NCBI GenBank assembly: GCA_964590105.1
Contig: CAZPYM010000001.1
Coordinates: 76,768 to 140,767, forward strand
DNA length: 64,000 nucleotides
Origin: an uncultured Gammaproteobacteria bacterium
Lineage (GTDB): Bacteria > Patescibacteriota > Patescibacteriia > UBA11705 > JABHMO01
Direction of reading: 5' to 3'
The notes beneath the pieces are model-generated. The model saw only the letters and a list, made by a program, of their open reading frames with translations, did no database searches and was not told where the DNA came from. Positions within the stretch are counted from its first letter, which is position 1, and every line of letters starts with the position of its first letter. A program made the translations under genes and the position numbers. This document shows positions 6,959-60,633 of this stretch, piece by piece.

Positions 6959-6976
6959 ATAATTTTAGTTGAAACA

Positions 6977-7005
6977 TTGACAAAAATCATTAGATGTGAT
7001 ATAAT
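6977..7005 (+). promoter_or_regulatory. near-perfect sigma70 promoter with an extended -10 element driving the 7061..8899 gene
   Basis: TTGACA (6977..6982), a 17-nt spacer, then TGaTATAAT (6997..7005). A GAGGGA Shine-Dalgarno sits at 7051..7056, 4 nt before the ATG. Confidence 0.6.
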
Positions 7006-7060
7006 ACCTTGTTAAGGGAAGGTCCTTTGACAATGGTCTAACTATTAATGGAGGGATGAA

Positions 7061-8899
7061 ATGTACGCATTGTTCATGGCTTTTGTGGTGTCTTTGCTTG
7101 GCGTTGTGCCACTCATGATCCGGAGGCGTTTTCTGCCTGCCGCAGTTGCCGGCGCCATCATGACGATTCCCTGGTGGATCGCGCTCTACTGCACCTGTCC
7201 GTCGTTGGTCTGGCCGCTGTGGGGCTGGATTGGTGGAGCAGTGGTAATCAACTGGCTCATTTCCGCCATTATCGACGGAGTGGTGAAGGATGAGCCAACC
7301 CTGACACTGCTGTTCCCTGTCATTGGGATGGGGATCCTGGCCATTGTGTCGCTCAGTGGCTGGGGATTGTTTCGCGCCAGCGATTACAGGAACCTTATCG
7401 GTGAAGTTCAGAAGATGGAGTTTACCAAGGATATGCAACCGAGCGACCCGGCCCACATCCGGATCGTGCCGCGGGAGCTGGCTGAATTCATGGCTGACAA
7501 GCAGCTCGGCGAAGCGGAGGGCTCCATCGGCAGTCAGTATCGAGTTGCCAAGGAATTGATGACGATCCAACGAGTGAACGGTGAATTGTGGTGGATCGCG
7601 CCGCTCGACTACAACGGATTCTCTGTCTGGACCTCGGTCGGCACAGTTCCCGGCTATGTCAAGGTGAATGCTGAGGATCCCTACCGGCCGGTGGAGTTGG
7701 TGCTTGACAAGCAGTACAAGTACACGCCGGGAGCATATTTCGGCGACAACCTGGAACGACATTTGTGGACCAATGGTTACATGACCAGAGGGCTCACGGA
7801 GTACTCGTTTGAAGAAGACGAGGCTGGCAAAGGTTGGTGGGTGGTGTCGGTGTTTGAGCCGACCATCAGCTACTGGGGAGAGAAGATCACCGGCGTGGCT
7901 GTGGTTGACCCGGCTTCGGGGGAAATTACTTTTTACGGAAAGGATGAGATCCCTGACTGGCTCGACAGAGCAGTTCCCCGGGAGTTTGCGGTTCAGTACA
8001 TGTCGAACTGGGGAAAGTTCACCCATGGATGGTGGAACACTCTCTGGGGCAAGAAGGAAGTCATGGATGTGACCCCGATGGGGAAAAACGAGGACTTCGT
8101 TGAAGTGATTTACGGCGCTGACGGCGAACCGTACTGGTTCACCGGCATTACGTCGGCCAGCAAGGAAGACGCGGCTCTGGTGAGCGTGATGTACATGCAC
8201 ACGCGCACCGGCAAGGTCATTGATTATCGGATTTCGGGGTTGAACGAAGAAGCAGTCATGCACGTTGTCAACAACGAAATCCATTACAAGGGCTGGACCG
8301 GCAGTACGCCAATGCTCTTCAATTTTTACGGGCGGGCGATCTGGGTGAGCACAGTGCTCGGCCAGAGCAACACGTTCAAGGGCGTCGCCCTGGTAGATGC
8401 GGATAACCAGAAGATCTACTGGGATGAGAACAACCCGCTTGGCGGATTTGCCAAGTTGCGGGTGGAGCTCGGCCAAGAACAGATCGCGGTGCCGCTCTCT
8501 ACGAGTGATGAACGGATTGCTTTCTCGGGGACGGTGGCAAGGATTGCTCTCGAAGGCTCGAATTACTACGTGCTGGTGAATGACTTGCCGCACGCCCTCG
8601 CTGGAACAAAGAGCATTTCGCTCGATCTGATTTTCACCCGGCCCGGCGATTCTGTGAAGGGCGAGTATCTTCAGTCCGGGGAAGATATTTTCTCACTGGC
8701 TTCCTTCGACAATCTGGCTGTAGAGCTCAAGCCTTCTGCCAAGCAGGAAGAACTGCGGGAGCGGACGGCAGGGCATCAGGAGGAAGTGAGGAATACGGAA
8801 GATTCCCGGGACATGAAGAAGCAGGTTGACAACATGAGTCCCGAGGAGCTGCGGCAGCTGCTCGAACTCAAGAAACAGGCGCAGGATAGCAAGGAGTAA
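7061..8899 (+). CDS. GC-rich 612-aa membrane protein of unknown function (three N-terminal TM helices, a large Trp/Tyr/Gly-rich probably beta-rich domain, and a charged coiled-coil tail); likely foreign
   Basis: Long ORF with E. coli-like codon choice (CTG, GGC, CCG, GCC) in a GC-rich block. It has its own consensus promoter, SD and terminator; the antisense 542-aa ORF is a GC artefact. Confidence 0.7.
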   Translation: MYALFMAFVVSLLGVVPLMIRRRFLPAAVAGAIMTIPWWIALYCTCPSLVWPLWGWIGGAVVINWLISAIIDGVVKDEPTLTLLFPVIGMGILAIVSLSGWGLFRASDYRNLIGEVQKMEFTKDMQPSDPAHIRIVPRELAEFMADKQLGEAEGSIGSQYRVAKELMTIQRVNGELWWIAPLDYNGFSVWTSVGTVPGYVKVNAEDPYRPVELVLDKQYKYTPGAYFGDNLERHLWTNGYMTRGLTEYSFEEDEAGKGWWVVSVFEPTISYWGEKITGVAVVDPASGEITFYGKDEIPDWLDRAVPREFAVQYMSNWGKFTHGWWNTLWGKKEVMDVTPMGKNEDFVEVIYGADGEPYWFTGITSASKEDAALVSVMYMHTRTGKVIDYRISGLNEEAVMHVVNNEIHYKGWTGSTPMLFNFYGRAIWVSTVLGQSNTFKGVALVDADNQKIYWDENNPLGGFAKLRVELGQEQIAVPLSTSDERIAFSGTVARIALEGSNYYVLVNDLPHALAGTKSISLDLIFTRPGDSVKGEYLQSGEDIFSLASFDNLAVELKPSAKQEELRERTAGHQEEVRNTEDSRDMKKQVDNMSPEELRQLLELKKQAQDSKE

Positions 8900-12122: not shown

Positions 12123-12255
12123 TTTACGTCGGATTTTGTGTTTCGTTGCTTTATTGTTCTTTTGTTTTCTTCCGCCATAGGCGGACTGGTGTTTTCTTGT
12201 TTTCTTGTTTTTGTGGTATAATAAATTTAGAAATAAAAATTCAAACAAATACAAT

Positions 12256-12642
12256 ATGGTTCGGGAAAATATTGCGGCCAAGTCTATTAAATTTATTTTA
12301 AGGGATTTGGTGCTGGACATTTTATTATGGCCGATCTGGTGGTATGGCGTGGGACTCAAAACCGCTTTTGGTAAGATGGGGGAGACGATTTCTCAGGGGA
12401 ATAGAGAATTGGCTCTCAGCGTTTGGGTAAAAAATTTATTTAAGCCAATGTTTGGCCAGTACGACTGGCAGGGCAGGATAATAAGTTTTTTCATGCGTGT
12501 TTTTCAAATTATTTTTCGTTTTTTGCTTTTTATGTTTTGGATAATATTTTCGGCAGTAGTTTTTTTGATCTGGTTTTTGCTGCCGATTTTTTTAATATCT
12601 CAAATCTTGTTAAATCTGGGATTGTTCGATAAATTAATATGA
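12256..12642 (+). CDS. hypothetical small multi-TM membrane protein
   Basis: The ORF-track start (12205) lies inside the promoter (TGTGGTATAAT at 12212..12222), so the start is moved to MVRENI at 12256. Confidence 0.45.
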   Translation: MVRENIAAKSIKFILRDLVLDILLWPIWWYGVGLKTAFGKMGETISQGNRELALSVWVKNLFKPMFGQYDWQGRIISFFMRVFQIIFRFLLFMFWIIFSAVVFLIWFLLPIFLISQILLNLGLFDKLI

Positions 12643-15392
12643 GCGATAAAAATAATTATTTAGTTTGTACCGAATGCGGCGGAACCGGCCAGGTCGAAGG
12701 AAATGTTTGCAATGTTTGCCGCGGACTCGGCGTGGTGTTGTTTTTGAACGACAAAGTTTTGTATTGGGGCAAGCATTATGACGCGCTGAATATTGCTTAC
12801 GACAAGATAACAACAAAGTTTAAAATCATTTATAATCTGGCGTTGGGACTAATCGGGCTGTCAGGGCTTGCGGTAATGGTTTACTATGGCTATCAGGACA
12901 ATTTTGTTGCATTTTTTTCTTATAAATACTGGTTAACGCCGAGCAGTGAAAAATTATATTTTTGGCTGACGCTTTTGATTGATTTGTATTTATATTATCG
13001 ACTGGAGCAGGAAGTGTCTTTGAAATACAGAGTAATGACTAAGAAATTTCAGTCAGGAATTGGCTCGGTTGCAGGAATGATTGATTGGGAAAGTATCAGT
13101 AAAATGAAAAAAGGAGAAATGGTTGACATCTCCGATACTTTTACCGGGGAAGCGAAAAAAGCAGTGCAAGCGAGCTTTGAGCTGGCCTGCCACTTTGAAC
13201 ACGGGGAGGTTTTGAGGGTTCATTTTTTTGGTATTTTATTTCAATTTGATAAATCAGCTATTATTCTAGCGCGGCTCGGTATAAACTTTGAACAGCTAAA
13301 ACAAAAGATCAGCAGATTTTTGTCCAGAAGCATTGTCAGCCGGCCGGGGATCCCCGGGCTGTCAGCTGAGTTATTAAAGTTGCTTTTGGCGGCTTATGCG
13401 GAAGCATATTCATCCAATAAAGACAAAGTTGATTTGCCGGAAATGGCGCTGTCTTTGGCCAATCCCGAGATCGTTGAAAAAGATAAACTTGATGAAGTTG
13501 AAGAAATATTAGTTGATTTTGATTTAAATTATCAAAAAGTAATAAATGTTGTTGCCTGGATCAGGATTCAAGAACAAATGCGCAGCAACTGGCAGAGATT
13601 TCGCGGGCGGGCTAGATATAAGCCAAAGTCAGGCATGGATAGAGCCATGACAGCGATCGCCACGCCTCTGCTTGACAAGTTTAGCGAAGACCTGACCGTT
13701 CTGGCCAAGTACGGGCAATATTTTCCTTGCATCGGCCGCGCTGACGAATTTGAAAAGATTTTCAGAGTCATTGAAGGCTCAAGACAAGGAGTGCTTTTGA
13801 TAGGAAATCAGGGAGTCGGTCGCACAACGATTTTGCAGGGGCTGGCTGGGCGCATGGCTTCAGAAGATGTGCCGGAATTATTGCAAGACAAAAGATTGGT
13901 CAGCCTGAACGTAGCCAGCTTACTGGCCGGCGTTGACGCGAGCGGCGCAGAGCAGAGATTACTTTATATTATTGATGAAGTGATTCGTTCCGGCAATATT
14001 ATTTTAGCGGTGGAAAATATCCACAATTTGCATGGCATCACAGCCGGCGGTGAGAACAGTCTAGATTTATCCGAGGTCTTTGCCCAGTTGCTGTCCAAAC
14101 ATTTATTTTATTGTCTGGCCACGACCACGCCTGACGGTTATGTAAATACGATTGAAAACAAAACATTGGATGCGGCTTTTCAGATTGTTAAAATTGATGA
14201 ATTGGAATTAAACGACGCAATTCAAGTATTGGAAGCAAAAAGCGGGCCGATTGAATATCAAAATAATATTTATTTTTCATATTCGGCAATAGAAAAAGCA
14301 GTAGTTTTGTCTTCCAGGTACATTCATGACAAATATTTGCCTGAAAAAGCAATCGGTATATTGGAACAGAGCGCCATTAAAGTAAAACAAGAAAGGGGTG
14401 TGGATAAAGTCGTGTTGGGTGAAGACGTGGCTGAAGTTATTTCCAGTATGACCAAGATTCCTCTGACTCAAGTGACGCAAAAAGAAAGCGAAAAACTTTT
14501 GAATATGGAAGACAGAATTCACGAGCGCATGGTTGATCAGGAAGAAGCGGTAAGTCTGGTGGCTGCCAGTCTGCGCCGGGCGCGGGCTGAATTGCGCGAA
14601 GGCAAGAGGCCGATCGCCAGCTTGCTGTTTCTCGGGCCGACCGGTGTTGGAAAAACCGAGCTGGCCAAAACAGTTGCAGAAGTTTATTTTAGCAATGAAA
14701 ATTCCATGATCCGCATCGACATGTCAGAATATCAGGAACAGTCGAGCATCGGCCGTTTAATCGGCCATGGTTCTAGCGCCGGCATTTTGACCGAGCAGGT
14801 GCGCAAAGCGCCATTTAGCTTGGTTCTCTTTGATGAGATAGAAAAAGCGCATCCCGATATTCTAAATTTATTTTTGCAGGTGCTGGACGATGGCCGGCTG
14901 ACTGACGCGCGCGGACGAACAATTGATTTCACCAGTACGATTATTATTATGACTTCCAATGCCGGCGCGCAATATATTCAGGATCAGATTAGAAAAGGCG
15001 AAGCCATTGAAAAAATAAAAGATTATTTGATAAATGAAGAATTAAAACAACATTTTCGGCCGGAATTTCTAAATCGTTTCGACGGCGTGGTTGTTTTCAA
15101 GCCTCTGTCAATGGTCGACGTGATCAAGATTGCTCGACTGATGATAAATAAAATTACTGCGCGATTAAAAGAAAAAGGAATTGAATTCAGCGTTACGGAC
15201 AGCGCAATCGCCGAGTTGGCTGAACTGGGTTTTGATCCAAAATTCGGCGCTCGGCCATTGCGCCGCACTATCCAGGAGCGGGTTGACGACGCACTGGCCA
15301 ATAAGATTTTAAAAGGCGAACTTGGCAGGCGGGATCGTGTAGTTATGGACGTCGGTGGAGAGTTACAAATTGAAAAAGCCGAGAAATTATAG
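12639..15392 (+). CDS. ClpC/ClpB-like AAA+ chaperone with an N-terminal DnaJ-type zinc ribbon plus TM segment(s), a degenerate D1 ATPase and an intact D2
   Basis: N-terminal CTECGGTGQ…CNVCRGLG, then hydrophobic helices, then Clp_N-like repeats. D1 Walker A reads GNQGVGRTT and Walker B ILAVENIHNL (both non-canonical); D2 Walker A GPTGVGKTE, Walker B LVLFDEIEKAH, and a sensor/arginine region. Confidence 0.7.
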   Translation: MSDKNNYLVCTECGGTGQVEGNVCNVCRGLGVVLFLNDKVLYWGKHYDALNIAYDKITTKFKIIYNLALGLIGLSGLAVMVYYGYQDNFVAFFSYKYWLTPSSEKLYFWLTLLIDLYLYYRLEQEVSLKYRVMTKKFQSGIGSVAGMIDWESISKMKKGEMVDISDTFTGEAKKAVQASFELACHFEHGEVLRVHFFGILFQFDKSAIILARLGINFEQLKQKISRFLSRSIVSRPGIPGLSAELLKLLLAAYAEAYSSNKDKVDLPEMALSLANPEIVEKDKLDEVEEILVDFDLNYQKVINVVAWIRIQEQMRSNWQRFRGRARYKPKSGMDRAMTAIATPLLDKFSEDLTVLAKYGQYFPCIGRADEFEKIFRVIEGSRQGVLLIGNQGVGRTTILQGLAGRMASEDVPELLQDKRLVSLNVASLLAGVDASGAEQRLLYIIDEVIRSGNIILAVENIHNLHGITAGGENSLDLSEVFAQLLSKHLFYCLATTTPDGYVNTIENKTLDAAFQIVKIDELELNDAIQVLEAKSGPIEYQNNIYFSYSAIEKAVVLSSRYIHDKYLPEKAIGILEQSAIKVKQERGVDKVVLGEDVAEVISSMTKIPLTQVTQKESEKLLNMEDRIHERMVDQEEAVSLVAASLRRARAELREGKRPIASLLFLGPTGVGKTELAKTVAEVYFSNENSMIRIDMSEYQEQSSIGRLIGHGSSAGILTEQVRKAPFSLVLFDEIEKAHPDILNLFLQVLDDGRLTDARGRTIDFTSTIIIMTSNAGAQYIQDQIRKGEAIEKIKDYLINEELKQHFRPEFLNRFDGVVVFKPLSMVDVIKIARLMINKITARLKEKGIEFSVTDSAIAELAELGFDPKFGARPLRRTIQERVDDALANKILKGELGRRDRVVMDVGGELQIEKAEKL

Positions 15393-15508: not shown

Positions 15509-16627
15509 ATGAACAGCTATGACTACATTTTTGCTTTGATTGCTTCATTTGCGCTTTGCCTAGTGGTGACGCCTTTTGTTATATTATTCGCGAAAAGAGC
15601 AAAAATAATTGATAAGCCGGATTCAGACCGCAAAATTCACCGGAAGCCGACGCCATTGCTTGGCGGGCTGGCGGTGTTTTTGAGTTTTAATTTGATTGTG
15701 CTTTTTTATTCTTTGATAACACGTGATTTGATCGGCGACACGATTATTTTCAAAAATCTTCTTGGCGTTTTTCTCGGCAGTTTTTTTCTGGCGCTCGGCG
15801 GATTTTTGGACGATAAATACAATCTGCGGCCAAAGTGGCAGCTGATCTGGCCGATACTAGCGGCGCTCAGCGTAATTGTCTGCGGTATTGGCATTGATTG
15901 GATAACAAATCCTTTTGGTGACGGAGTCCTGGAGTTAAATAAATATACGATTAAACTTTTTTGGTACCATGGAATAGCTTATAAATTTACTTTGCTGGCT
16001 GATATTTTTACTTTTGTCTGGCTACTTGCCATGATGTACACGACGAAACTTTTGGACGGGCTTGACGGCTTGGTTTCCGGCATTACAATTATTGGTTCAA
16101 TTTTTATATTTTTTACTGCTTTGAACAAAGGTGACATTATTCAGTACGATGTTGCTCTTCTGGCAATAATCCTGATCGGAGTTTTTGTGGGCTTTTTGGT
16201 TTTTAATTTTAATCCGGCCTCGATTTTTCTTGGCGAAGGCGGCAGTACCATGGCCGGATTTTTGCTCGGCTGTATTTCAATAATCAGCGGTAGTAAAGTC
16301 GGCATTACTTTGCTTTTGCTGTCGATTCCTTTTCTTGATTTTGTCTGGACCGTAGTCCGTCGTTTTGTTGAAAAAAGAAATTTATTCAGCGCTGACAGAA
16401 AACATTTGCACCATCGTCTGCTCGATGCCGGATTTACGGTCAAGCGTGCGGTTTTATTTTTGTATTCAATCGCAGTGGCCTTTGGCTTGGTGGCATATTA
16501 TTTCCAGGACAAGGGCATTAGTTTCATGACCGCAATGGCGGCGGTAGTGGTGGTTTTTATGCTGATTTTAGCTTATGTATATACAAAAAAGAGGCGAAAA
16601 GCCAGACTCTTGACGGAAAACAATTAA
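15509..16627 (+). CDS. glycosyltransferase family 4 polyprenyl-phosphate sugar-1-phosphate transferase (MraY/WecA family)
   Basis: Multi-TM protein with DDKYNLRP and LLDGLDGL motifs. Confidence 0.7.
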   Translation: MNSYDYIFALIASFALCLVVTPFVILFAKRAKIIDKPDSDRKIHRKPTPLLGGLAVFLSFNLIVLFYSLITRDLIGDTIIFKNLLGVFLGSFFLALGGFLDDKYNLRPKWQLIWPILAALSVIVCGIGIDWITNPFGDGVLELNKYTIKLFWYHGIAYKFTLLADIFTFVWLLAMMYTTKLLDGLDGLVSGITIIGSIFIFFTALNKGDIIQYDVALLAIILIGVFVGFLVFNFNPASIFLGEGGSTMAGFLLGCISIISGSKVGITLLLLSIPFLDFVWTVVRRFVEKRNLFSADRKHLHHRLLDAGFTVKRAVLFLYSIAVAFGLVAYYFQDKGISFMTAMAAVVVVFMLILAYVYTKKRRKARLLTENN

Positions 16628-38229: not shown

Positions 38230-40308
38230 ATGGCAAAAAAAATGAAAAAGATCCACAAAGTTAGATTAACGGTCGCGGCCATTCTGGTATTGGCTTGCTT
38301 GTTGATGTTTTTTGACGCGCCGCAGGTATATGATAGGGCAATTGATTATTTAAATGGAAAAATGGGAACAGAATTTTCTCATTTCAAGAGTATTCCTTTC
38401 AGATTAGGATTAGATTTACAGGGAGGAACTCATTTGGTTTATGAAGCTGATACTGAGAAGATAGATTTTGCGGAAAAAAGCGATGCCGTGGAGGGCGTTC
38501 GCGACGTAATTGAGCGCCGAGTAAATGCTTTTGGCGTGGCCGAACCCGTGGTGCAAATAAATAAAGCCAAGGGCAAATGGCGGGTCATCGTGGAATTAGC
38601 TGGAATAAAAGATGTTAAACAGGCAATCGCCATGATCGGCGAAACGCCGCTTTTGGAATTCAAAGAAGAAAACACCGAACCGGCGCGCGAACTGACGCCG
38701 GAAGAACGGCAAGGTATGGAAAGTTTTAATAAAGAAGCGAAAGAAAAAGCAAATATTGCCATGAAGGAGGCATTGTCCGGCAAAGATTTTGCTGAAGTGG
38801 CCAAAGAATATTCAACAAGCTCTGATATTGATGTTCAGACAGAAGGCGACACTTTCACCGTCGGCAGCGCCTATGATCTTGGTTGGATCGACGGCAAAGG
38901 CGGCTATGCGTTTTTGTATGAAAAAGCCGGAGAAACAGAGCCGGGCCAGCTTTATCCAAAGTTAATTGAACAGCCAAACGGCTATTATATATTAAAAGTT
39001 GAGGACAAGCGTGAAACAGGAGAAGAAGTAAGGGCCAGTCATATTTTGATTTGTTACAACGGAGCTGAACGTTGCGACAAAGAAACAACCAAAGAAGAAG
39101 CAGAACAAAAAATTAAAGAAGTAAAAGAAAAGGCGACTGACAAAAACTTCGCTGATTTGGCAAAAGAATATTCCACCGGTCCGACCGGCCCTGACGGTGG
39201 CGACCTTGGCTGGTTCGCGCAGGGACAAATGGTCAAGGAGTTTGATGATACAGTTTTCAATATGGAAAAAGGCGCTATCTCTGATATTGTGGAAACTCAA
39301 TTTGGTTATCATTTAATTTTCAAAACCGATGAAAGGGCTCTGGAGGAATACAAGGTCACCAATGCTTATATTAAAACAAAAACTGAGGCTGATATTTTAC
39401 CGCCGGCTGATCAATGGAAAAATACGGAATTAACCGGTAAGCAATTGAAAGGTTCAAGAGTTGAATTTGATCCAAATACCAATCTGCCTCAGGTTGCCTT
39501 GCAGTTTAATGATGAAGGTAAAAAACTTTTTGCCGAAGTAACCACCCGCAATGTCGGCAAACCAGTGGCGATTTATCTTGACGGCGCGCCAATCAGCGTT
39601 CCTCGAGTAAACGAAGCTATTACCGGCGGAGAGGCGGTGATTACCGGCGATTTTGACGTTCAGGAAGCGAAATTATTGGTGCAAAGATTAAACGCGGGCG
39701 CCCTGCCTGTGCCAATTAAACTTGTCAGTCAGCAAACTGTTGGCGCGAGCCTTGGCAGTGATTCATTGCAAAAAAGTTTATTCGCGGGAATTGTCGGATT
39801 GATTTTGGTAATGCTATTCATGATTATATATTATCGATTGCCAGGTCTCTTGGCGGTAATTGCATTGATTATCTATGGCGTTGCTGTTTTGTTTATATTC
39901 AAAGTAATCCCAGTAACCCTGACCCTAGCCGGTATTGCCGGTTTTATCTTGTCAGTTGGTATGGCAGTGGACGCCAATGTGCTTATTTTCGAAAGATTAA
40001 AGGAAGAACTGCGCATGGGCAAGCCGCTCGGAGCGGCCATTGACGAAGGATTTAAGCGCGCCTGGACTTCTATTCGCGACGGCAATGTTTCCACTCTTAT
40101 TACCTGCTTTATTTTAATGTGGTTCGGCACGAGCATGATCAAAGGTTTCGCCATAACGCTTGGAATCGGCGTTTTGATGAGTATGTTCTCAGCCATTGTT
40201 GTTACTCGCCAATTTTTACATGTTTTTGTTAATCCAGAAAAGCAGAGCAAGCGCTTGTGGCTTTTTGGAGTAAAGAGTAATAAAGGAGATGATGCCAATA
40301 ATAAATAA
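38230..40308 (+). CDS. secD: protein translocase subunit SecD carrying an inserted parvulin-type PPIase region (one intact and one degenerate PpiC domain) in the periplasmic head
   Basis: SecD base (GLDLQGGTHLVYEAD…) and C-terminal TM bundle (…GMAVDANVLIFERLKEE…). In between: VRASHILI…GGDLGWFAQGQMVKEFDDTVFNMEKGAISDIVETQFGYHLIFKTDER (parvulin), preceded by a degenerate copy (…DFAEVAKEYS…DLGWID…GYYILKVEDKRE). Confidence 0.75.
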   Translation: MAKKMKKIHKVRLTVAAILVLACLLMFFDAPQVYDRAIDYLNGKMGTEFSHFKSIPFRLGLDLQGGTHLVYEADTEKIDFAEKSDAVEGVRDVIERRVNAFGVAEPVVQINKAKGKWRVIVELAGIKDVKQAIAMIGETPLLEFKEENTEPARELTPEERQGMESFNKEAKEKANIAMKEALSGKDFAEVAKEYSTSSDIDVQTEGDTFTVGSAYDLGWIDGKGGYAFLYEKAGETEPGQLYPKLIEQPNGYYILKVEDKRETGEEVRASHILICYNGAERCDKETTKEEAEQKIKEVKEKATDKNFADLAKEYSTGPTGPDGGDLGWFAQGQMVKEFDDTVFNMEKGAISDIVETQFGYHLIFKTDERALEEYKVTNAYIKTKTEADILPPADQWKNTELTGKQLKGSRVEFDPNTNLPQVALQFNDEGKKLFAEVTTRNVGKPVAIYLDGAPISVPRVNEAITGGEAVITGDFDVQEAKLLVQRLNAGALPVPIKLVSQQTVGASLGSDSLQKSLFAGIVGLILVMLFMIIYYRLPGLLAVIALIIYGVAVLFIFKVIPVTLTLAGIAGFILSVGMAVDANVLIFERLKEELRMGKPLGAAIDEGFKRAWTSIRDGNVSTLITCFILMWFGTSMIKGFAITLGIGVLMSMFSAIVVTRQFLHVFVNPEKQSKRLWLFGVKSNKGDDANNK

Positions 40309-43465: not shown

Positions 43466-45082
43466 ATGGATATTTTCGGGTTGCAGCTATCATTTGACTG
43501 GAGCTGGATATACAATCTCGGGACGCAGCCTCTGTATGTAATCATGTGGCATTTTTTTGTTAATGGCGGCTGGATTTTGGTTTTGGTTGTGCTTATTTAT
43601 GGCGGCATGATCAACTATGTTTATTGGATGCAGTGCAAGTTTGCGGCCAAACAAACTTATGTTTTTCTGGCCATAGACATTCCCAAGAATATTTTGCAAA
43701 CACCTCGGGCTGTCGAAAATATTTTCACGGCCATGGCCGGCGCGCAGCAGCCTCTTGATTGGCATGAAAAATATTTATTTGGCGAATTTCAACTTGGCTA
43801 CAGTCTAGAAATCGTCAGCATTGACGGCTTTATTCAATTTATAATTAGAACTCCGAGCCAGTTCCGCAATCTGGTGGAAGCGTCTGTTTATTCGCAATAT
43901 CCTGAAGCGGAAATTACTGAAGTTCATGACTATACTGCGGAAATTAATGTCAGCTTTCCAAGTGATGAATATAATTTATGGGGCGCTGACTTGGTTTTGG
44001 TGAAGCCTGATTATTATCCGATTAAAACCTATAAAGAATTTCAAGAAGAACTGGATAATGAATTCAAAGATCCAATGGCCGCTCTGCTCGAAGTAATGAG
44101 CACAATCGGTCCGGGCGAGCAGATTTGGTTTCAGCTTATGATTGCTCCGGCTGATATAGGTTGGGAAAGTACGGGCGTTAAAGCAGTAAATAAAATAATT
44201 GGTATTGAAGAAAAATACAAGAAAAATGTTCTTGACTATATTAGTGACGTGCCGCTCAAGGCCCTGGAAATTGTTGGCGATTCATTGTTTTCCAGCGAAG
44301 GAAAGGTTGCTGAACAAAAAAAAGATGAAAAGTTCAACATGATGTTTCTCGATCCGATTAAAAAAAGAGAAGTGGAGACTATTTTGCAGAAGGTTGATAA
44401 AAATTGTTTCATGTGCAAGTTGCGCTATGTTTATTTTGGTAAAAGAGAAGTATTTAAAAAAGGACTCGGCGTGTCCGGCGTAATGGGCGCGATCAAACAA
44501 TTTGGCGTCACGGGCTTGAACGCTTTTAAGCCGGGGAAAAACAAGACCCAGGCTAAGCTGTTTTTGAAAAAACCGCGCATGTCGGTCAAGCAGAATTTGA
44601 TGTTGAAAAATTTTAAAAAAAGAAATCCGGATACTTGCAAGGGGAAATACCTGCTCAGCGTGGAAGAATTAGCCACCTTGTTCCACTTCCCATATATTGA
44701 GGTCAAGGCTCCAATGGTCAAGAAGATCGAATCGAAAAAAGGCCATGCTCCGATTGGTCTGCCAGTGGAAGAAAAAGCGGCCGCTGGAGAAGTGGAAGAA
44801 ATTGAAGCGCCAACGCCCCTGGAGTTTGGTGAAAAAGTGCCAGTGGTTGATTTTGATAATGATTATTTTGAAGAGCGTTTTGCTGTTGACAAGTCCGGCC
44901 AGTCAGACAAAATCCGTAAACAGCAATTAGTGAAAAAATTGGAAGAAGCCGGTATTTTGAAAGCAACTAAAACCGATAATAATAATGATGATCAAGATGA
45001 TGCTCCTCCTTTTAACGTTGAAAATAAAATTGATTCCGAGGATGGTGATCAGGCCACACCTTCCAATCTTCCTTTTGCCTAA
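43466..45082 (+). CDS. membrane protein of unknown function (N-terminal TM helices, large soluble domain, acidic tail), encoded immediately upstream of a VirD4-like ATPase
   Basis: Hydrophobic N-terminus (WILVLVVLIYGGMINYVYWM); no recognised catalytic motif. Confidence 0.5.
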   Translation: MDIFGLQLSFDWSWIYNLGTQPLYVIMWHFFVNGGWILVLVVLIYGGMINYVYWMQCKFAAKQTYVFLAIDIPKNILQTPRAVENIFTAMAGAQQPLDWHEKYLFGEFQLGYSLEIVSIDGFIQFIIRTPSQFRNLVEASVYSQYPEAEITEVHDYTAEINVSFPSDEYNLWGADLVLVKPDYYPIKTYKEFQEELDNEFKDPMAALLEVMSTIGPGEQIWFQLMIAPADIGWESTGVKAVNKIIGIEEKYKKNVLDYISDVPLKALEIVGDSLFSSEGKVAEQKKDEKFNMMFLDPIKKREVETILQKVDKNCFMCKLRYVYFGKREVFKKGLGVSGVMGAIKQFGVTGLNAFKPGKNKTQAKLFLKKPRMSVKQNLMLKNFKKRNPDTCKGKYLLSVEELATLFHFPYIEVKAPMVKKIESKKGHAPIGLPVEEKAAAGEVEEIEAPTPLEFGEKVPVVDFDNDYFEERFAVDKSGQSDKIRKQQLVKKLEEAGILKATKTDNNNDDQDDAPPFNVENKIDSEDGDQATPSNLPFA

Positions 45083-45099
45083 GAAACATTAATACGATT

Positions 45100-46857
45100 A
45101 TGACGGAAAAGATAACCCCATTTGCTTTTACAAATTTTCGAAATGCGCGCAAGCGCTTTGGCATCAAAACCGACGATCGACGCCGGCATATGTATATAAT
45201 TGGAAAAACCGGTATGGGTAAATCAGTTTTAATTGAAAACATGGTTTATTCTGATATTGCCAATGGAAATGGCTGTTGTCTGGTGGATCCGCACGGCGAT
45301 TCGGCTGAGCTGATGATCAATTGCATTCCTCCAAATAGAATCAATGATGTGATATATATTAATCCGGCGGATTTGGAATATCCGATTGCTTTTAATGTGC
45401 TGGAAAAAGTGGATAATAAATATCGCCACTTGGTGGCTTCGGGCCTGGTCGGAGTTTTCAAAAAAATCTGGGCGGACAGTTGGGGACCTCGTTTGGAATA
45501 TATTTTGCGCAATACCATATTGGCACTTCTGGACTATCCCGACAGCACGCTCCTTGGTGTCAATCGCATGTTGGTGGACAAGGAATACCGCAAAAAAGTA
45601 ATTGCCAAAGTTCAGGATCCAGTGGTAAAAATGTTTTGGCAGGATGAATTTTCCAAATATAATGAAAAATTTCTAACTGAAGCGATCGCGCCTATTCAAA
45701 ATAAAATTGGCCAATTCTTATCAACTTCTCTAATTAGAAATATTGTCGGTCAGGTGAAGTCAACAATTGATTTGCGCAAGATTATGGATGAAGGCAAGAT
45801 TGTCATTCTGAATCTTTCAAAGGGCCGGATCGGCGAGGATGCTTCCGCCTTACTCGGCGCCATGATTATTACCAAAATTCAGCTAGCCGCTATGAGCCGC
45901 GTGGACATGCCGGAAACGACGAGAAAAGATTTTTATCTTTATGTAGACGAATTCCAAAACTTTGCCACAGAATCATTTGCCAATATTTTATCAGAAGCCA
46001 GAAAATATCATTTGTGCTTAACAATTGGCCATCAATACATCGGCCAGCTCGAGATTGGTGGTAATACGGTTGTTCGTGATGCAATATTCGGCAATGTCGG
46101 CACAATGATTGTTTTTCGGGTTGGCGCAGCTGACGCGGAATTTTTATCCAGGGAATTTGCCCCGCATTTTACAGAAGAAGATTTAGTTAACTTGCCGAAA
46201 TATAATGTATATTTGAAATTAATGATTGATGGCGTTGCTTCAGATCCTTTTAGCGCCACCACCCTGCCGCCAATTTCCCAGAAAACCTCGAGTGAAGAAA
46301 GCGTGATCAAAGTAACCAGAGAAAGATACGCCAAAGAAAGGGATGTGGTGGAAGACAAAATTACTCGTTGGAGCGGTGTGGAAACCGATGCAATGCTGGA
46401 AAAAATGGAAATGGACATTGTGCACAAAAAAGCGCAAAAAATTATTAGCAAAAAATTGGATTTTTTGGCCAGCATGCGAGGTGAAAATCAGCGCGAAGAA
46501 GAGCAAACGCCGGAAGAAAAAGTAATAATAGCAAAAAAAGAAGGAGACGGAAAAGAAGATCTAGCTACAGGGGACAAGGATGAAATTGTTAATATTGTAA
46601 AATGCGACAGTTGTGGAGCCAAAACAAAAATTAATTTTAATCCTGATCCCCGCCGCCCGGTCTATTGCAAGGATTGTCTTAAGGATTTTCGGCGCAAACA
46701 AGCGCTCGAGGAAAATATAAGTCAAAGAAGACAGGATACTCGCGGCGCGGCAGCTCCGGCCGGAGGCGACCGGCCACGAGCCAAGGAAGTTTCTTTGTCT
46801 GATTTGCAAAAAAATAAACCTTCTTCGTTTCGAGCTCCCAAAAGAGAGCGCTCTTAA
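45100..46857 (+). CDS. VirD4/TraG/TrwB-like (type IV coupling protein family) P-loop ATPase lacking the N-terminal TM anchor, with a C-terminal CxxC…CxxC zinc ribbon
   Basis: Walker A IIGKTGMGKS followed by VDPHGD (compare DPKGE in VirD4), Walker B LYVDEFQNF, and a C-terminal CDSCGAKTKINFNPDPRRPVYCKDC. Confidence 0.6.
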   Translation: MTEKITPFAFTNFRNARKRFGIKTDDRRRHMYIIGKTGMGKSVLIENMVYSDIANGNGCCLVDPHGDSAELMINCIPPNRINDVIYINPADLEYPIAFNVLEKVDNKYRHLVASGLVGVFKKIWADSWGPRLEYILRNTILALLDYPDSTLLGVNRMLVDKEYRKKVIAKVQDPVVKMFWQDEFSKYNEKFLTEAIAPIQNKIGQFLSTSLIRNIVGQVKSTIDLRKIMDEGKIVILNLSKGRIGEDASALLGAMIITKIQLAAMSRVDMPETTRKDFYLYVDEFQNFATESFANILSEARKYHLCLTIGHQYIGQLEIGGNTVVRDAIFGNVGTMIVFRVGAADAEFLSREFAPHFTEEDLVNLPKYNVYLKLMIDGVASDPFSATTLPPISQKTSSEESVIKVTRERYAKERDVVEDKITRWSGVETDAMLEKMEMDIVHKKAQKIISKKLDFLASMRGENQREEEQTPEEKVIIAKKEGDGKEDLATGDKDEIVNIVKCDSCGAKTKINFNPDPRRPVYCKDCLKDFRRKQALEENISQRRQDTRGAAAPAGGDRPRAKEVSLSDLQKNKPSSFRAPKRERS

Positions 46858-57659: not shown

Positions 57660-58943
57660 ATGCCCCACGTCGGATTTATTGACCCCATGTATCAGCCAAA
57701 TTACAAAAAAGAGATTGTGGCCACTTTTCATATGGAGCCGGAAGTGGCTTTTAATGAAGCGGCGGAGGCAGTGGCCGGTGAAAGTTCAATTGGTTCGTGG
57801 ACTGATTTATCCACGCTAAAGCCGGAAGTTGCCCAAAAAATTAAAGCCGTGGTTTTTTATTTAAATCAAAAACAAAAAATTATTAAAATCGCTTATCCTT
57901 TGGATTTGTTTGAACTCGGAAGCATTCCACAATTTCTTTCGAGCGTGGGCGGTAATGTTTTTTCAATGAAAGCCGTGAAAAATCTGCGATTGTTGGATGT
58001 GGAATTCCCGGAAAAATATATTAAAAGTTTTCAAGGGCCGGCGCTTGGCATTGAGGGTATTAGAAAAATATTGAAAAATAAAGACCGGCTTATTCTTGGC
58101 AGTATTATTAAACCCAAAGTCGGATTAACTGCGGCTGAACACGCGGAGGTTGCCTATGAAGTGTGGCGGAATGGAATTGACCTGGTAAAAGACGATGAAA
58201 ATCTGACCGACATGGTTTTTAATCGATTTGAAGAGCGGGTAAAAAGAACTTTGGCCAAAAGAAAAAAAGCAGAAGAGGAAACAGGAAAAATTAAAATATA
58301 TGCAGTGAATATTACCGCACCGGCAGATATCATGCTGGAACGAGCCAAGTTTGTGAAGGCGCAGGGCGGCCGTTGTGTAATGGTGGATATAATTTCAACC
58401 GGCCTCGACAATGTTCAGTATTTACGTAAGCAAAATTTAGGTTTGATAATTCACGGGCACCGAGCGGGCCATAGCACTTTTACCCGCAATCCGCGGCACG
58501 GTATTACCATGCTCGTCATTGCCAAACTTGCCAGATTGGCTGGAGTTGATCAGCTTCATACTGGCACAGTCGTTGGCAAGATGGAAGGTTCAGTGGATGA
58601 TGTCTTGACGACTAATGAGCTGTTGCGGGAAGACTGGCAGCATTATCATGTTCTTCAAGAAAATTGGACGTCATTAAAACCAACCATGCCCATTGCTTCA
58701 GGCGGACTGCATCCGGGCCTTTTGCCAAAACTGGTTGAAATCCTTGGCAGCGATTTAATCGCTAATTTTGGCGGCGGGGTGCATGGACATCGAGATGGCT
58801 CGGCAGCCGGCGCTCGCGCCTGTTTTCAGGCGGCTGAGGCCATTGCAGCGGGCAAATCACTGCGCGATCAGGCCAAATTTCATCCTGAACTGAAAATAGC
58901 GCTGGATCAGTGGGGCGGTGTGAAATATAAATATGAGAGGTGA
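57660..58943 (+). CDS. rbcL: ribulose-1,5-bisphosphate carboxylase large subunit, form III (II/III-like) type
   Basis: RuBisCO large-subunit catalytic motifs (…GGLHPG…, …GGGVHGHRDGSAAGARA…); about 427 aa with no small-subunit gene nearby. Confidence 0.8.
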   Translation: MPHVGFIDPMYQPNYKKEIVATFHMEPEVAFNEAAEAVAGESSIGSWTDLSTLKPEVAQKIKAVVFYLNQKQKIIKIAYPLDLFELGSIPQFLSSVGGNVFSMKAVKNLRLLDVEFPEKYIKSFQGPALGIEGIRKILKNKDRLILGSIIKPKVGLTAAEHAEVAYEVWRNGIDLVKDDENLTDMVFNRFEERVKRTLAKRKKAEEETGKIKIYAVNITAPADIMLERAKFVKAQGGRCVMVDIISTGLDNVQYLRKQNLGLIIHGHRAGHSTFTRNPRHGITMLVIAKLARLAGVDQLHTGTVVGKMEGSVDDVLTTNELLREDWQHYHVLQENWTSLKPTMPIASGGLHPGLLPKLVEILGSDLIANFGGGVHGHRDGSAAGARACFQAAEAIAAGKSLRDQAKFHPELKIALDQWGGVKYKYER

Positions 58944-59133
58944 AGAGGATATAGGATGAACAGGATAAATAGGAGATTAGAAACTGGAAATCAGAAATTG
59001 GGGTTACTGTCTTTTCTTTCTATTTCACATCTCACGTCTCACTTCTCACTTCTCATGTCTTACTACTTTTTCGCGTTTGTAATTTGTTATTTGCTTGTAA
59101 TTTGTTATTTGTAATTTGTAATTTTATTATTTT

Positions 59134-60633
59134 ATGTCGTATTATCTAAAATGTAAAAAACTGGATTTTTCCACCGGCGGGCCATTGGTGGTTCTTTTGA
59201 ATGAAGAAGAAGCGCAAAACTACGGTATTTATCCGGGAGACAGAGTTCAAATCGGCTGGGACAAAAAAAAGAAAGAGATTGCCGACGTGGATGTTTCGGA
59301 TTCGAAAGTCCAACCTGGCGAGATCGGATTATTTGAGGAAATTTGGAAAAAACACAATGTTGAAAGCGGCGACGTGGCTGAAATAACGTTGGAATCGCGG
59401 CCGCTGTCAATGGAAACTCTGCGAAAAAAAATGCTTGGCAAGCCGGCCAATTACAAAGAAATGTATGCGCTGATCAAAGATATTGCTGACGGCAGAATGG
59501 GTAAAATTGAAACAACATATTACGCGGCCAGCGGATTTGTTAAACCTTTTTCTGACCAGGAACTTTATTTTGTGGCCAAGGCCATGGCGGAAACCGGTGA
59601 ACAATTCAATTATAAAAAAATAAAAGTGGCAGACAAACATTCGGTCGGCGGCTTGGCCGGCAATAGGATGACGCCGATTATTGTTTCAATAATTGCTTCA
59701 CTTGGAATTTACATTCCGAAAACATCTTCTCGCGCCATCACTTCGCCTGCAGGAACTGCGGATATGATGGAAGTTCTTTGCCCCGTAAGTTTTACCTTGC
59801 CGGAAATAAAAAAAATTGTGCGCAAAACAAAAGGCTGCCTGGTCTGGGGTGGCGGACTGCGCATGGCGCCGGCTGATGACAAAATTATTAAAGTTTCCCG
59901 GCCGTTGGCAGTGGAATCATATGATAAAATGATTGTCAGTATTATTGCCAAGAAAGTGGCGACCGGTGTTGACTATTTAGTTGTGGATGTTCCTGTAGGC
60001 GCGACCTGTAAAGTGCCGGACATGAAACATGCCAGGCAAATTGAGAAAAAGTTTCATGCTCTGTGCAAAAGATTTAATATTAAAGTAAAAGTGGTAATAA
60101 CTCCAGCCAAAGAACCGATCGGTCGGGGAATAGGACCGGCGCTCGAAGCTAGGGATGTTCTGCGCGTTCTTCAGCAACATAAATTCAAGCCGCTTGATCT
60201 GGAAAATAAATCTTGCAAGCTGGCCGGCAAGCTTCTCGAATTAAAAGGGTTTTGTCGCGCTGGCAAGGGAATTTTAATCGCCAAGCAGCAAATAAAAAAC
60301 GGCGAGGCTTGGAAAAAAATGAATCAGATTATTATTGCTCAGGGAGGCAAAGTAGATATTAATTCCGAAGAAGTAATGCAGGAAGTGGAACGCTATGAGA
60401 TTCATGCCAAAAGAAAAGGGAAAATAGCTTTTGTTGATAATAAAGAAATAAATGAGGTGTGCATGAACCTGGGCGCGCCGATTGATAAATACGCCGGTAT
60501 TCATACGCACGTGAGATATGGCCAAAAAGTGAAAAAAGGTCAGAAGCTTTTCACCATGTACGCCAGCAGTCATGATCGCCTAAAACTGGGCGTGGCCGCC
60601 GCCGGTAACAATATAATTTTCCACATCAATTAG
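59134..60633 (+). CDS. AMP phosphorylase (thymidine-phosphorylase family with N-terminal extension)
   Basis: Pyrimidine-nucleoside phosphorylase core (…HSVGGLAGNRMTPIIVSIIASLG…TSSRAITSPAGTADMMEV…) plus an N-terminal extension, next to RuBisCO III and e2b2. Confidence 0.75.
   Translation: MSYYLKCKKLDFSTGGPLVVLLNEEEAQNYGIYPGDRVQIGWDKKKKEIADVDVSDSKVQPGEIGLFEEIWKKHNVESGDVAEITLESRPLSMETLRKKMLGKPANYKEMYALIKDIADGRMGKIETTYYAASGFVKPFSDQELYFVAKAMAETGEQFNYKKIKVADKHSVGGLAGNRMTPIIVSIIASLGIYIPKTSSRAITSPAGTADMMEVLCPVSFTLPEIKKIVRKTKGCLVWGGGLRMAPADDKIIKVSRPLAVESYDKMIVSIIAKKVATGVDYLVVDVPVGATCKVPDMKHARQIEKKFHALCKRFNIKVKVVITPAKEPIGRGIGPALEARDVLRVLQQHKFKPLDLENKSCKLAGKLLELKGFCRAGKGILIAKQQIKNGEAWKKMNQIIIAQGGKVDINSEEVMQEVERYEIHAKRKGKIAFVDNKEINEVCMNLGAPIDKYAGIHTHVRYGQKVKKGQKLFTMYASSHDRLKLGVAAAGNNIIFHIN

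Follow-up and report, generated by a model that had tools for sequence, protein, structure and literature searches.

A predicted membrane-anchored Clp/Hsp100-like ATPase with a degenerate first ATPase module, encoded next to a small membrane protein in Patescibacteria

The present analysis concerns a stretch of 64,000 nucleotides (nt), hereafter referred to as the window, which covers positions 76,768 to 140,767 of the forward strand of contig CAZPYM010000001.1 (assembly GCA_964590105.1), deposited as an uncultured Gammaproteobacteria bacterium and placed by GTDB within the Patescibacteriota. At the locus under study, a gene for a 917-amino-acid (aa) Clp/Hsp100-like ATPase, here called clp, is preceded by a gene for a 128-aa protein and followed by a gene for a WecA/TagO-like GT4 transferase (Table 1). 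A preliminary description of the window, made from the sequence without database searches, had presented the product of clp as a membrane-anchored, ClpC-like unfoldase with an N-terminal DnaJ-type zinc ribbon and a first ATPase module (D1) unable to hydrolyse ATP. The open reading frame (ORF) and all the motifs quoted in that description were present as given.

Table 1. Features of the clp locus, followed by two further genes of the window; positions are counted from the first nucleotide of the window.
Feature	Position	Strand	Basis
Terminator-like hairpin after ddl, upstream boundary of the unit	12171..12185	+	TCCGCC-ATA-GGCGGA and T-rich tail
Extended -10-like element TGGTATAAT, candidate promoter of the pair	12214..12222	+	Consensus match only
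Small partner gene, 128 aa, predicted membrane protein	12256..12642	+	Synteny, AlphaFold
Membrane-anchored Clp/Hsp100-like ATPase gene (clp; anchoring predicted)	12639..15392	+	Single ORF, 917 aa
Zinc ribbon, aa 8-34, two CxxCxGxG knuckles, one predicted Zn site	12660..12740	+	Conserved Cys, predicted strands
Membrane hairpin: TM1 aa ~61-85, 20-aa outside loop, TM2 aa ~104-121 (predicted)	12819..13001	+	Hydropathy, charge, predicted helices, conservation
Clp N-domain, aa ~165-325	13131..13613	+	Foldseek match of predicted structure
D1 pseudo-ATPase module and lid, aa ~346-620	13674..14498	+	ClpC alignment, family columns
D2 motor and D2-small domain, aa ~621-905	14499..15353	+	Pfam, motif columns, conservation
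WecA/TagO-like GT4 polyprenyl-phosphate sugar-phosphate transferase gene	15509..16627	+	Pfam, NCBIfam
Stand-alone four-CxxCxGxG protein, 87 aa	41450..41713	+	Pfam E=1.8e-7, 31.8 bits, just under cut-off
D1-only Clp, 404 aa, N-terminal hydrophobic helix	49484..50698	+	Walker A GVGKT, Walker B IDEIH, pore loop KYRGEFEER

Pfam profiles identified in the 917-aa protein the tandem AAA+ modules, the AAA_lid_9 domain (aa 525-619, E=9.2e-11) and the C-terminal ClpB_D2-small domain (aa 823-901, E=6.1e-24) that define class I Clp/Hsp100 proteins; the second module (D2) was matched by AAA_2 (aa 657-815, E=6.6e-54), and the AAA match on D1 was weak. Its neighbours in NCBIfam were ClpB, ClpA, ClpG, ClpK, and TssH, and the cut-off of every Clp family was undershot, with scores of 568 vs. 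1232 for ClpB (TIGR03346) and 489 vs. 993 for ClpA (TIGR02639). The best full-length matches in the PDB were the ClpC proteins of S. aureus (485 bits) and B. subtilis (477 bits). The architecture was absent from Pfam, NCBIfam, and PDB entries, and literature searches found no description of the family, in line with the earlier remark that a zinc ribbon plus transmembrane (TM) anchor on a Clp protein is unusual.

A protein search, in which P0001 is identical to the query, gave 320 matches at E<=1e-10 among 8000 candidates scored. The best 120 of these 320 matches were 43-100% identical to the query and measured ~870-940 aa, with a few shorter, partial ones of ~650-680 aa; nearly all of them spanned the whole query, including the N-terminus, and their source names were all from Patescibacteria. 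In addition, a locus scan with a four-sequence alignment against one genome per GTDB species yielded 52 loci, whose titles named Falkow-, Buchanan-, Magasanik-, and Uhrbacteria and the Parcubacteria group; about 20 titles read "uncultured Gammaproteobacteria" and were taken as uninformative. All the homologues with a named source belonged to Parcubacteria-group Patescibacteria (Falkow-, Kuenen-, Buchanan-, Magasanik-, and Uhrbacteria). A profile of the zinc ribbon and membrane hairpin (aa 1-134) recovered 676 clusters at 50% identity from 1.84 billion proteins searched. The 917-aa protein belongs, then, to a conserved branch of the class I Clp/Hsp100 AAA+ proteins that occurs in Patescibacteria and carries no name. 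Within this branch, the mean pairwise identity was 66% for D2, 44% for D1, and 21-28% for the N-terminal parts.

The residues of D1 were read from a residue-by-residue alignment with ClpC and from the family alignment. The replacement of Lys by Arg in Walker A and of Asp-Glu by Glu-Asn in Walker B, both noted in the preliminary description, were recovered in the ClpC alignment, where the catalytic positions are not conserved and are occupied instead by R395 (GNQGVGRTT), E459-N460 (IILAVENIH), and A512-A513, the last pair standing in place of the two arginine fingers. In addition, the pore loop KYRGEFEER reads VDASGA-EQR, with A434 at the position of the tyrosine. With the arginine fingers and the pore tyrosine gone too, D1 is more degenerate than had been described, and it is predicted to be unable to hydrolyse ATP; the pair of competent rings that characterizes ClpB/Hsp104 is not found in this protein. 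Across the family, the Walker A position holds Lys in 47 members, Arg in 9 (the clade of this protein), and Ala in one, whereas the catalytic Glu of Walker B is absent in 57 of 57, the arginine fingers are lost in the 29 aligned homologues, and no aromatic pore residue is present in any of 58.

D2 had been described as canonical, which holds for its ATPase site: Walker A K672 (GPTGVGKTE), Walker B D732-E733 (LVLFDEIEKAHPD), sensor 1 N774, the arginine finger R813, and sensor 2 R872 (GARPLRR) are all in place, and all the catalytic residues are invariant in the family alignment. This invariance, together with the 66% identity of the module, points to selection for ATP hydrolysis. However, the pore loop is not canonical, as GAPPGYVG is reduced to GH------G by deletion of GYVG, leaving G709-H710-G711. 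Of 58 members, 46 lack the D2 pore aromatic, this protein among them, and only the other 12 keep it as Tyr or Phe, which suggests that the loss has been progressive within the family. Both rings of the 917-aa protein thus lack an aromatic residue in the pore loop. The closest solved structure to D2 was the D2 of T. thermophilus ClpB (262 bits), which it also approaches in length (233 vs. 237 aa against ClpB; 231 vs. 243 aa against ClpC).

The label "ClpC-like" did not hold in two respects. Firstly, the ClpP-docking xGF/IGL loop was missing, with a 7-aa gap exactly at the AGF/VGF loop of S. aureus and B. subtilis ClpC, and no tripeptide [ILVMF]G[FLIMV] followed D2 sensor 1 in 54 of 56 members, the 917-aa protein included. 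Without this loop, docking to ClpP in the known way is impossible, and the name that genes of this family carry ("ATP-dependent Clp protease ATP-binding subunit ClpC") wrongly implies ClpP-dependent proteolysis. Secondly, neither the short ClpC-type nor the long ClpB-type M-domain was present between D1 and D2 in the alignments. The ClpA profile ran collinear through the junction (aa 171-901 vs. positions 4-730 of 734), as did ClpA structures (aa 343-901 vs. 167-731); the alignment with ClpC fell into two overlapping pieces that left ~55-60 ClpC residues unmatched, and ClpB profiles aligned in two separate stretches only. Collinearity with ClpA, which is M-domain-free, indicates that the 917-aa protein has no M-domain, and a known handle for DnaK or MecA appears to be missing from it.

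At the N-terminus, the two knuckles CTECGGTG (aa 10-17) and CNVCRGLG (aa 24-31) form the core of the zinc ribbon. C10, C13, C24, and C27 were invariant and G15 and G17 at least 90% conserved among 27 homologues of 27-64% identity, far above chance; over the 27-29 homologues aligned, the cysteines were invariant or close to it, and two CxxC motifs were found in 45 of 58 family members. However, only part of the "DnaJ-type" label stood. The two CxxCxGxG motifs and their invariant cysteines are there, but the match to Pfam DnaJ_CXXCXGXG was below threshold (E=0.013, 16.1 bits vs. a cut-off of 32.7), and the domain of PF00684 has four repeats and two zinc centres, whereas the two knuckles here allow for one zinc site. 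Other matches of the ribbon, to NCBIfam RtpA/anti-TRAP (E=1.7e-4) and to BSD2_CRD (E=0.069), were likewise under the curated cut-offs. An AlphaFold model of aa 1-345 (pLDDT 84.8, pTM 0.81) showed a beta ribbon with strands at aa 7-9, 32-36, and 39-42, helices at aa 49-86 and 103-125 (pLDDT ~90), and a helical domain at aa 150-325. Zinc binding is predicted from the cysteine conservation and from this modelled beta ribbon.

The two modelled helices agree with the hydrophobic helices reported before, TM1 being strong and TM2 marginal. The Kyte-Doolittle value of TM1 was 2.08, and it reached at least 1.6 in 98% of 57 homologues; that of TM2 was 1.12 in this protein, and at least 1.6 in 72% of the same homologues. 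TM2 carries the motif FWxxLLxDLYLYYR, in which R121 is invariant. Family-wide, the count of Lys plus Arg drops from 4.2 ahead of TM1 to 1.4 in the 20-aa loop and rises to 4.3 behind TM2, a distribution that fits a hairpin with both ends inside, so that the zinc ribbon is predicted to be cytoplasmic. Behind the hairpin, the Clp_N assignment of the preliminary description was confirmed by fold: Pfam gave no Clp_N match at E<=10, its hidden Markov model thus missing the domain, but the predicted structure of aa 150-325 is a double Clp N-domain that Foldseek matched to the N-domains of ClpC1, ClpB, HSP101, and ClpA in the PDB (TM-score ~0.8, ~145 columns, E down to 6e-6). The overall picture of a Clp/Hsp100 protein with an N-terminal zinc ribbon, a membrane anchor, and a non-hydrolysing D1 was therefore borne out at the level of prediction. 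As a separate observation, the linker between the N-domain and D1 (ARYKPKSGMDRAMTAIATPLLD..., aa 326-360, positions 13614..13718) showed 62% mean pairwise identity, about level with D2, and its first half, RxKPKxGMDRAMTA, is family-specific.

The stop codon of the small upstream gene overlaps the start codon of clp by 4 bp (ATGA), and in 57 of 58 loci a homologue of the small gene immediately precedes the Clp-like gene in the same orientation. From this arrangement, clp is predicted to be translationally coupled to its 128-aa companion. The genes further upstream of the pair vary (ddl, PMT, 2-Hacid_dh, YibE_F, TGT); in the window this is ddl, whose product we take, from reading its translation alone, to be D-Ala-D-Ala-ligase-like. 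The extended -10-like element TGGTATAAT stands 34 nt upstream of the ATG of the small gene. The partner family comprised 2842 clusters, all annotated as "hypothetical" and none with a Pfam match; for the 128-aa protein itself, NCBIfam gave no match and Pfam only a sub-threshold one to DUF4873 (E=0.0084). AlphaFold predicted a helical hairpin (pLDDT 91.5) with helices at aa 6-52 and 71-120, joined at the tip by an invariant aromatic loop (NLFxPMFGQYDWxGR), and its C-terminus contains a charge-free hydrophobic stretch of 27-44 residues, the predicted anchor. No PDB entry matched this fold at E<1, and generic helical hairpins were all that came up above that value.

Downstream of clp, the GT4 product was matched by Pfam Glycos_transf_4 (E=1.6e-27), with WecA as its best NCBIfam match. 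In 38 of 58 loci, the Clp-like gene is followed by a GT4 gene in the same orientation, and the two often overlap or stand no more than 9 bp apart. In one case (P0415, L062 4240-7935, GCA_964470025.1), both genes are fused into a Clp-GT4 protein of 1231 aa, with the small partner gene still upstream. The fusion junction omits the first TM helix of the GT4, which keeps the membrane topology coherent.

Variants without D2, ~603-607 aa long, were also detected (L060 4808-6619, L063 401-2221, and L064 2894-4717). They retain the zinc ribbon, membrane hairpin, Clp_N, and dead D1, and end exactly at the D1/D2 linker; in all three loci GT4 lies directly downstream, and no small partner gene is present in the locus. 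The ~600-aa proteins were considered as pure truncation artefacts and this was rejected, as P0404, P0412, and P0434 end inside contigs and are followed by GT4; P0392 is partial at a contig end, so that truncation applies in that one case. The D2-less variants are real.

Several known systems share part of this architecture. With ClpB/Hsp104, the 917-aa protein has in common the N-domain, the two AAA+ modules, the D2-small domain, a D2 that is closest in sequence and length, and the lack of a ClpP loop; it differs in having no coiled-coil M-domain, a dead D1, and neither pore tyrosine, and in adding the N-terminal zinc ribbon and membrane hairpin. The ClpA/ClpC/ClpE group provides the best full-length PDB matches (ClpC) and the same D1-D2 spacing (ClpA), and ClpE too has an N-terminal zinc finger, but the xGF/IGL loop, the ClpC M-domain, an active D1, and the pore tyrosines are all missing here, and the protein is predicted to be membrane-anchored. 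FtsH, Msp1, and ATAD1 likewise keep a cytoplasmic AAA+ ring at the membrane through an N-terminal TM anchor, and FtsH, with two TM helices per subunit and small membrane partners, offers the closest analogy for the anchoring; however, FtsH and Msp1 belong to the classical AAA clade and have one ATPase ring with aromatic pore loops, and FtsH has a fused protease, none of which applies to the 917-aa protein. The cysteine-rich domains of DnaJ, anti-TRAP, and BSD2 share the CxxCxGxG knuckle, although DnaJ has four repeats against two here, and a J-domain is lacking.

In functional terms, the closest analogy, which does not extend to family membership, would be with Torsins, the AAA+ proteins of the eukaryotic endoplasmic reticulum and nuclear envelope. 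These are Clp/Hsp100-D2-related, membrane-associated ATPases controlled by dedicated transmembrane cofactors and devoid of aromatic pore loops (PMC5425593). Torsins differ in that they consist of one AAA+ module, lack an arginine finger of their own, and act in the endoplasmic reticulum lumen, whereas the 917-aa protein retains the D2 finger R813 and possesses an N-domain and a zinc ribbon as well as a pseudo-D1. As D2 keeps its own finger, complementation of the active site by a cofactor, as in Torsins, would not be required.

On balance, we consider with moderate confidence that the 917-aa protein most likely works as a membrane remodelling ATPase that depends on a partner and not on ClpP, with a job other than classical protein unfolding. 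The absence of a ClpP contact, of an M-domain that could bind DnaK or MecA, and of tyrosine paddles argues against a protease partner, and the two missing pore-loop tyrosines argue against a classical threading disaggregase; a processive threading disaggregase it probably is not. The protein would assemble as a membrane-tethered hexamer in which D1, like NSF-D2 and Pex1/6-D1, serves as a structural ring only and D2 is the sole motor. The ATP cycle of D2 would then remodel or reposition a dedicated membrane client or cofactor without threading it. The small partner is the prime candidate for this client, as its predicted cytoplasmic helical stalk and aromatic tip could reach the face formed by the N-domain and D1. 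A tie to the initiation of cell-envelope glycans through the neighbouring WecA-like GT4 is plausible.

Several observations weigh against this reading. The topology was derived from hydropathy and charge, and the hydrophobicity of TM2 is marginal in this protein. The GAPPGY-type D2 pore loop is kept in 12 of 58 relatives; threading was probably ancestral to the family, and forms without the tyrosine might still translocate by means of other loops. The existence of the D2-less variants implies that part of the family function needs no motor in cis, and the ATPase may be dispensable. As to the envelope, GT4 sits in a wider conserved block (GT4-rplU-recR-ybaB-dnaB), so its adjacency may be inherited synteny rather than function; among 10 loci without an adjacent GT4 that were checked, seven have an unrelated annotated gene downstream (DUF192, YceG, tRNA synthetase, GpsA) and three a Pfam-less ORF. 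Finally, the fusion is known from one sequence only, on one contig, and could be either real or an assembly artefact.

The preliminary description had favoured a membrane-associated threading unfoldase or disaggregase that pulls misfolded or membrane proteins, perhaps together with the D1-only Clp and the four-CxxCxGxG protein of the window. The fold with its intact D2 motor would suit such a role, as would the N-domain and zinc ribbon, typical docking modules for substrates or adaptors (ClpX and ClpE also bear N-terminal zinc domains), and the Tyr or Phe retained in the D2 pore loop of the 12 relatives. Membrane-anchored AAA+ extractases, such as FtsH and Msp1, do exist, and D1-only homologues share contigs with members of the family in at least two other genomes. 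However, the lack of an aromatic residue in the D1 pore of all 58 members and in the D2 pore of 46, this one included, makes the unfoldase or disaggregase label doubtful. The M-domain for coupling to DnaK is missing as well, no synteny was found with the D1-only gene or with the zinc protein, and the conserved neighbour is a different protein, the 128-aa partner. We therefore regard this explanation as unlikely.

An equally tentative possibility is that the protein is an accessory or regulatory subunit of the WecA/TagO-like GT4, to which the hairpin, N-domain, and pseudo-D1 would bind, while D2 and the partner would switch, assemble, or remove the enzyme and so control the initiation of lipid-linked envelope glycans, in a manner comparable to the control of LpxC by FtsH and LapB in E. 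coli. The close spacing of GT4 in 38 loci, the topologically coherent fusion, and the presence of GT4 without the partner next to all three D2-less variants speak for it, as do the envelope genes found nearby (PMT-type glycosyltransferases in L001 and, in the window, ddl ahead of the pair). Against it, the adjacency forms part of a block that includes the unrelated rplU, recR, and dnaB, the link is not universal, and the fusion is known from that one contig. A somewhat less probable variant still is a bacterial counterpart of Torsins, that is, a non-threading, membrane-embedded, Hsp100-derived ATPase whose D2 would act on the helical-hairpin cofactor to switch or assemble a WecA-type enzyme; if true, this would represent a previously unknown AAA+ control layer of envelope biogenesis in candidate-phyla bacteria. 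Finally, a decaying pseudo-enzyme acting as a passive membrane scaffold in which ATP hydrolysis no longer matters, comparable to the Clp-like regulators SMAX1/D53 of plants, would account for the progressive losses (D1 dead in all, the D2 pore loop gone in 46 of 58, the zinc ribbon gone in some, and D2 missing altogether from the ~600-aa variants), but is highly improbable given that D2 is the most conserved region (66%) of the full-length members and its catalytic residues are all invariant.

Hsp100 proteins are the textbook AAA+ machines working by tyrosine-paddle threading. Under the favoured reading of a partner-dependent remodelling ATPase, the family would constitute a natural experiment on an Hsp100 motor without threading, combining a conserved D2, lost paddles, a dead D1, fixation to the membrane, and a small partner, and it would offer a prokaryotic comparison for Torsins. 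Together with the partner, it represents a set of widespread, lineage-specific membrane components with a possible link to the initiation of envelope glycans; this process is at the heart of the surface-attached way of life of candidate-phyla bacteria.

With respect to the two proteins proposed earlier as members of a joint assembly, both exist as noted, the D1-only Clp with intact Walker A and B motifs. The 87-aa protein resembles the cysteine-rich domain of DnaJ without J-domain or C-terminal domains, and its gene lies just after secD/secF. The D1-only protein lacks D2 and includes roughly two-thirds of a ClpB-type M-domain; its homologues (320-410 aa) form a conserved set in Patescibacteria, and no conserved neighbours were found in their loci. 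However, the genes of the 87-aa and D1-only proteins lie 26 and 34 kb away from clp with no conserved linkage, so the proposal of a joint assembly did not stand beyond co-occurrence in the same genomes. An operon-level cluster of clp, the D1-only gene, and the four-CxxCxGxG gene was likewise rejected, as no synteny was detected in the window or in the homologue loci. A role in defence was considered too and rejected: PADLOC gave generic ClpB-D2-type AAA matches (DolB, PDC-M37B) on D2 only and nothing for the 128-aa partner, and no defence context was found.

Other genes of the window also showed unusual features. A 612-aa ORF at 7061..8899 (+), with no Pfam or NCBIfam match, is overlapped almost fully by a 542-aa antisense ORF at 6965..8593 (-). 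The SecD-like protein encoded at 38230..40308 (+) carries a PpiC-type rotamase domain inserted at aa ~256-367, between SecD_1st (aa 88-148) and SecDF_P1_head (aa 397-494), an unusual fusion between an accessory subunit of the translocon and a foldase. At 43466..46857 (+), the gene for a 538-aa membrane protein without family precedes one for a TraD/VirD4-like coupling ATPase, whose C-terminal part holds a CxxC-x17-CxxC zinc domain, and a similar TrwB-type gene was found upstream of the Clp cassette in L004. Finally, and in keeping with a Patescibacteria origin of the window, a RuBisCO large-subunit homologue adjoins a thymidine/AMP-phosphorylase-like gene at 57660..60633 (+), a pair that in candidate-phyla genomes is a reported part of a nucleoside-salvage route.

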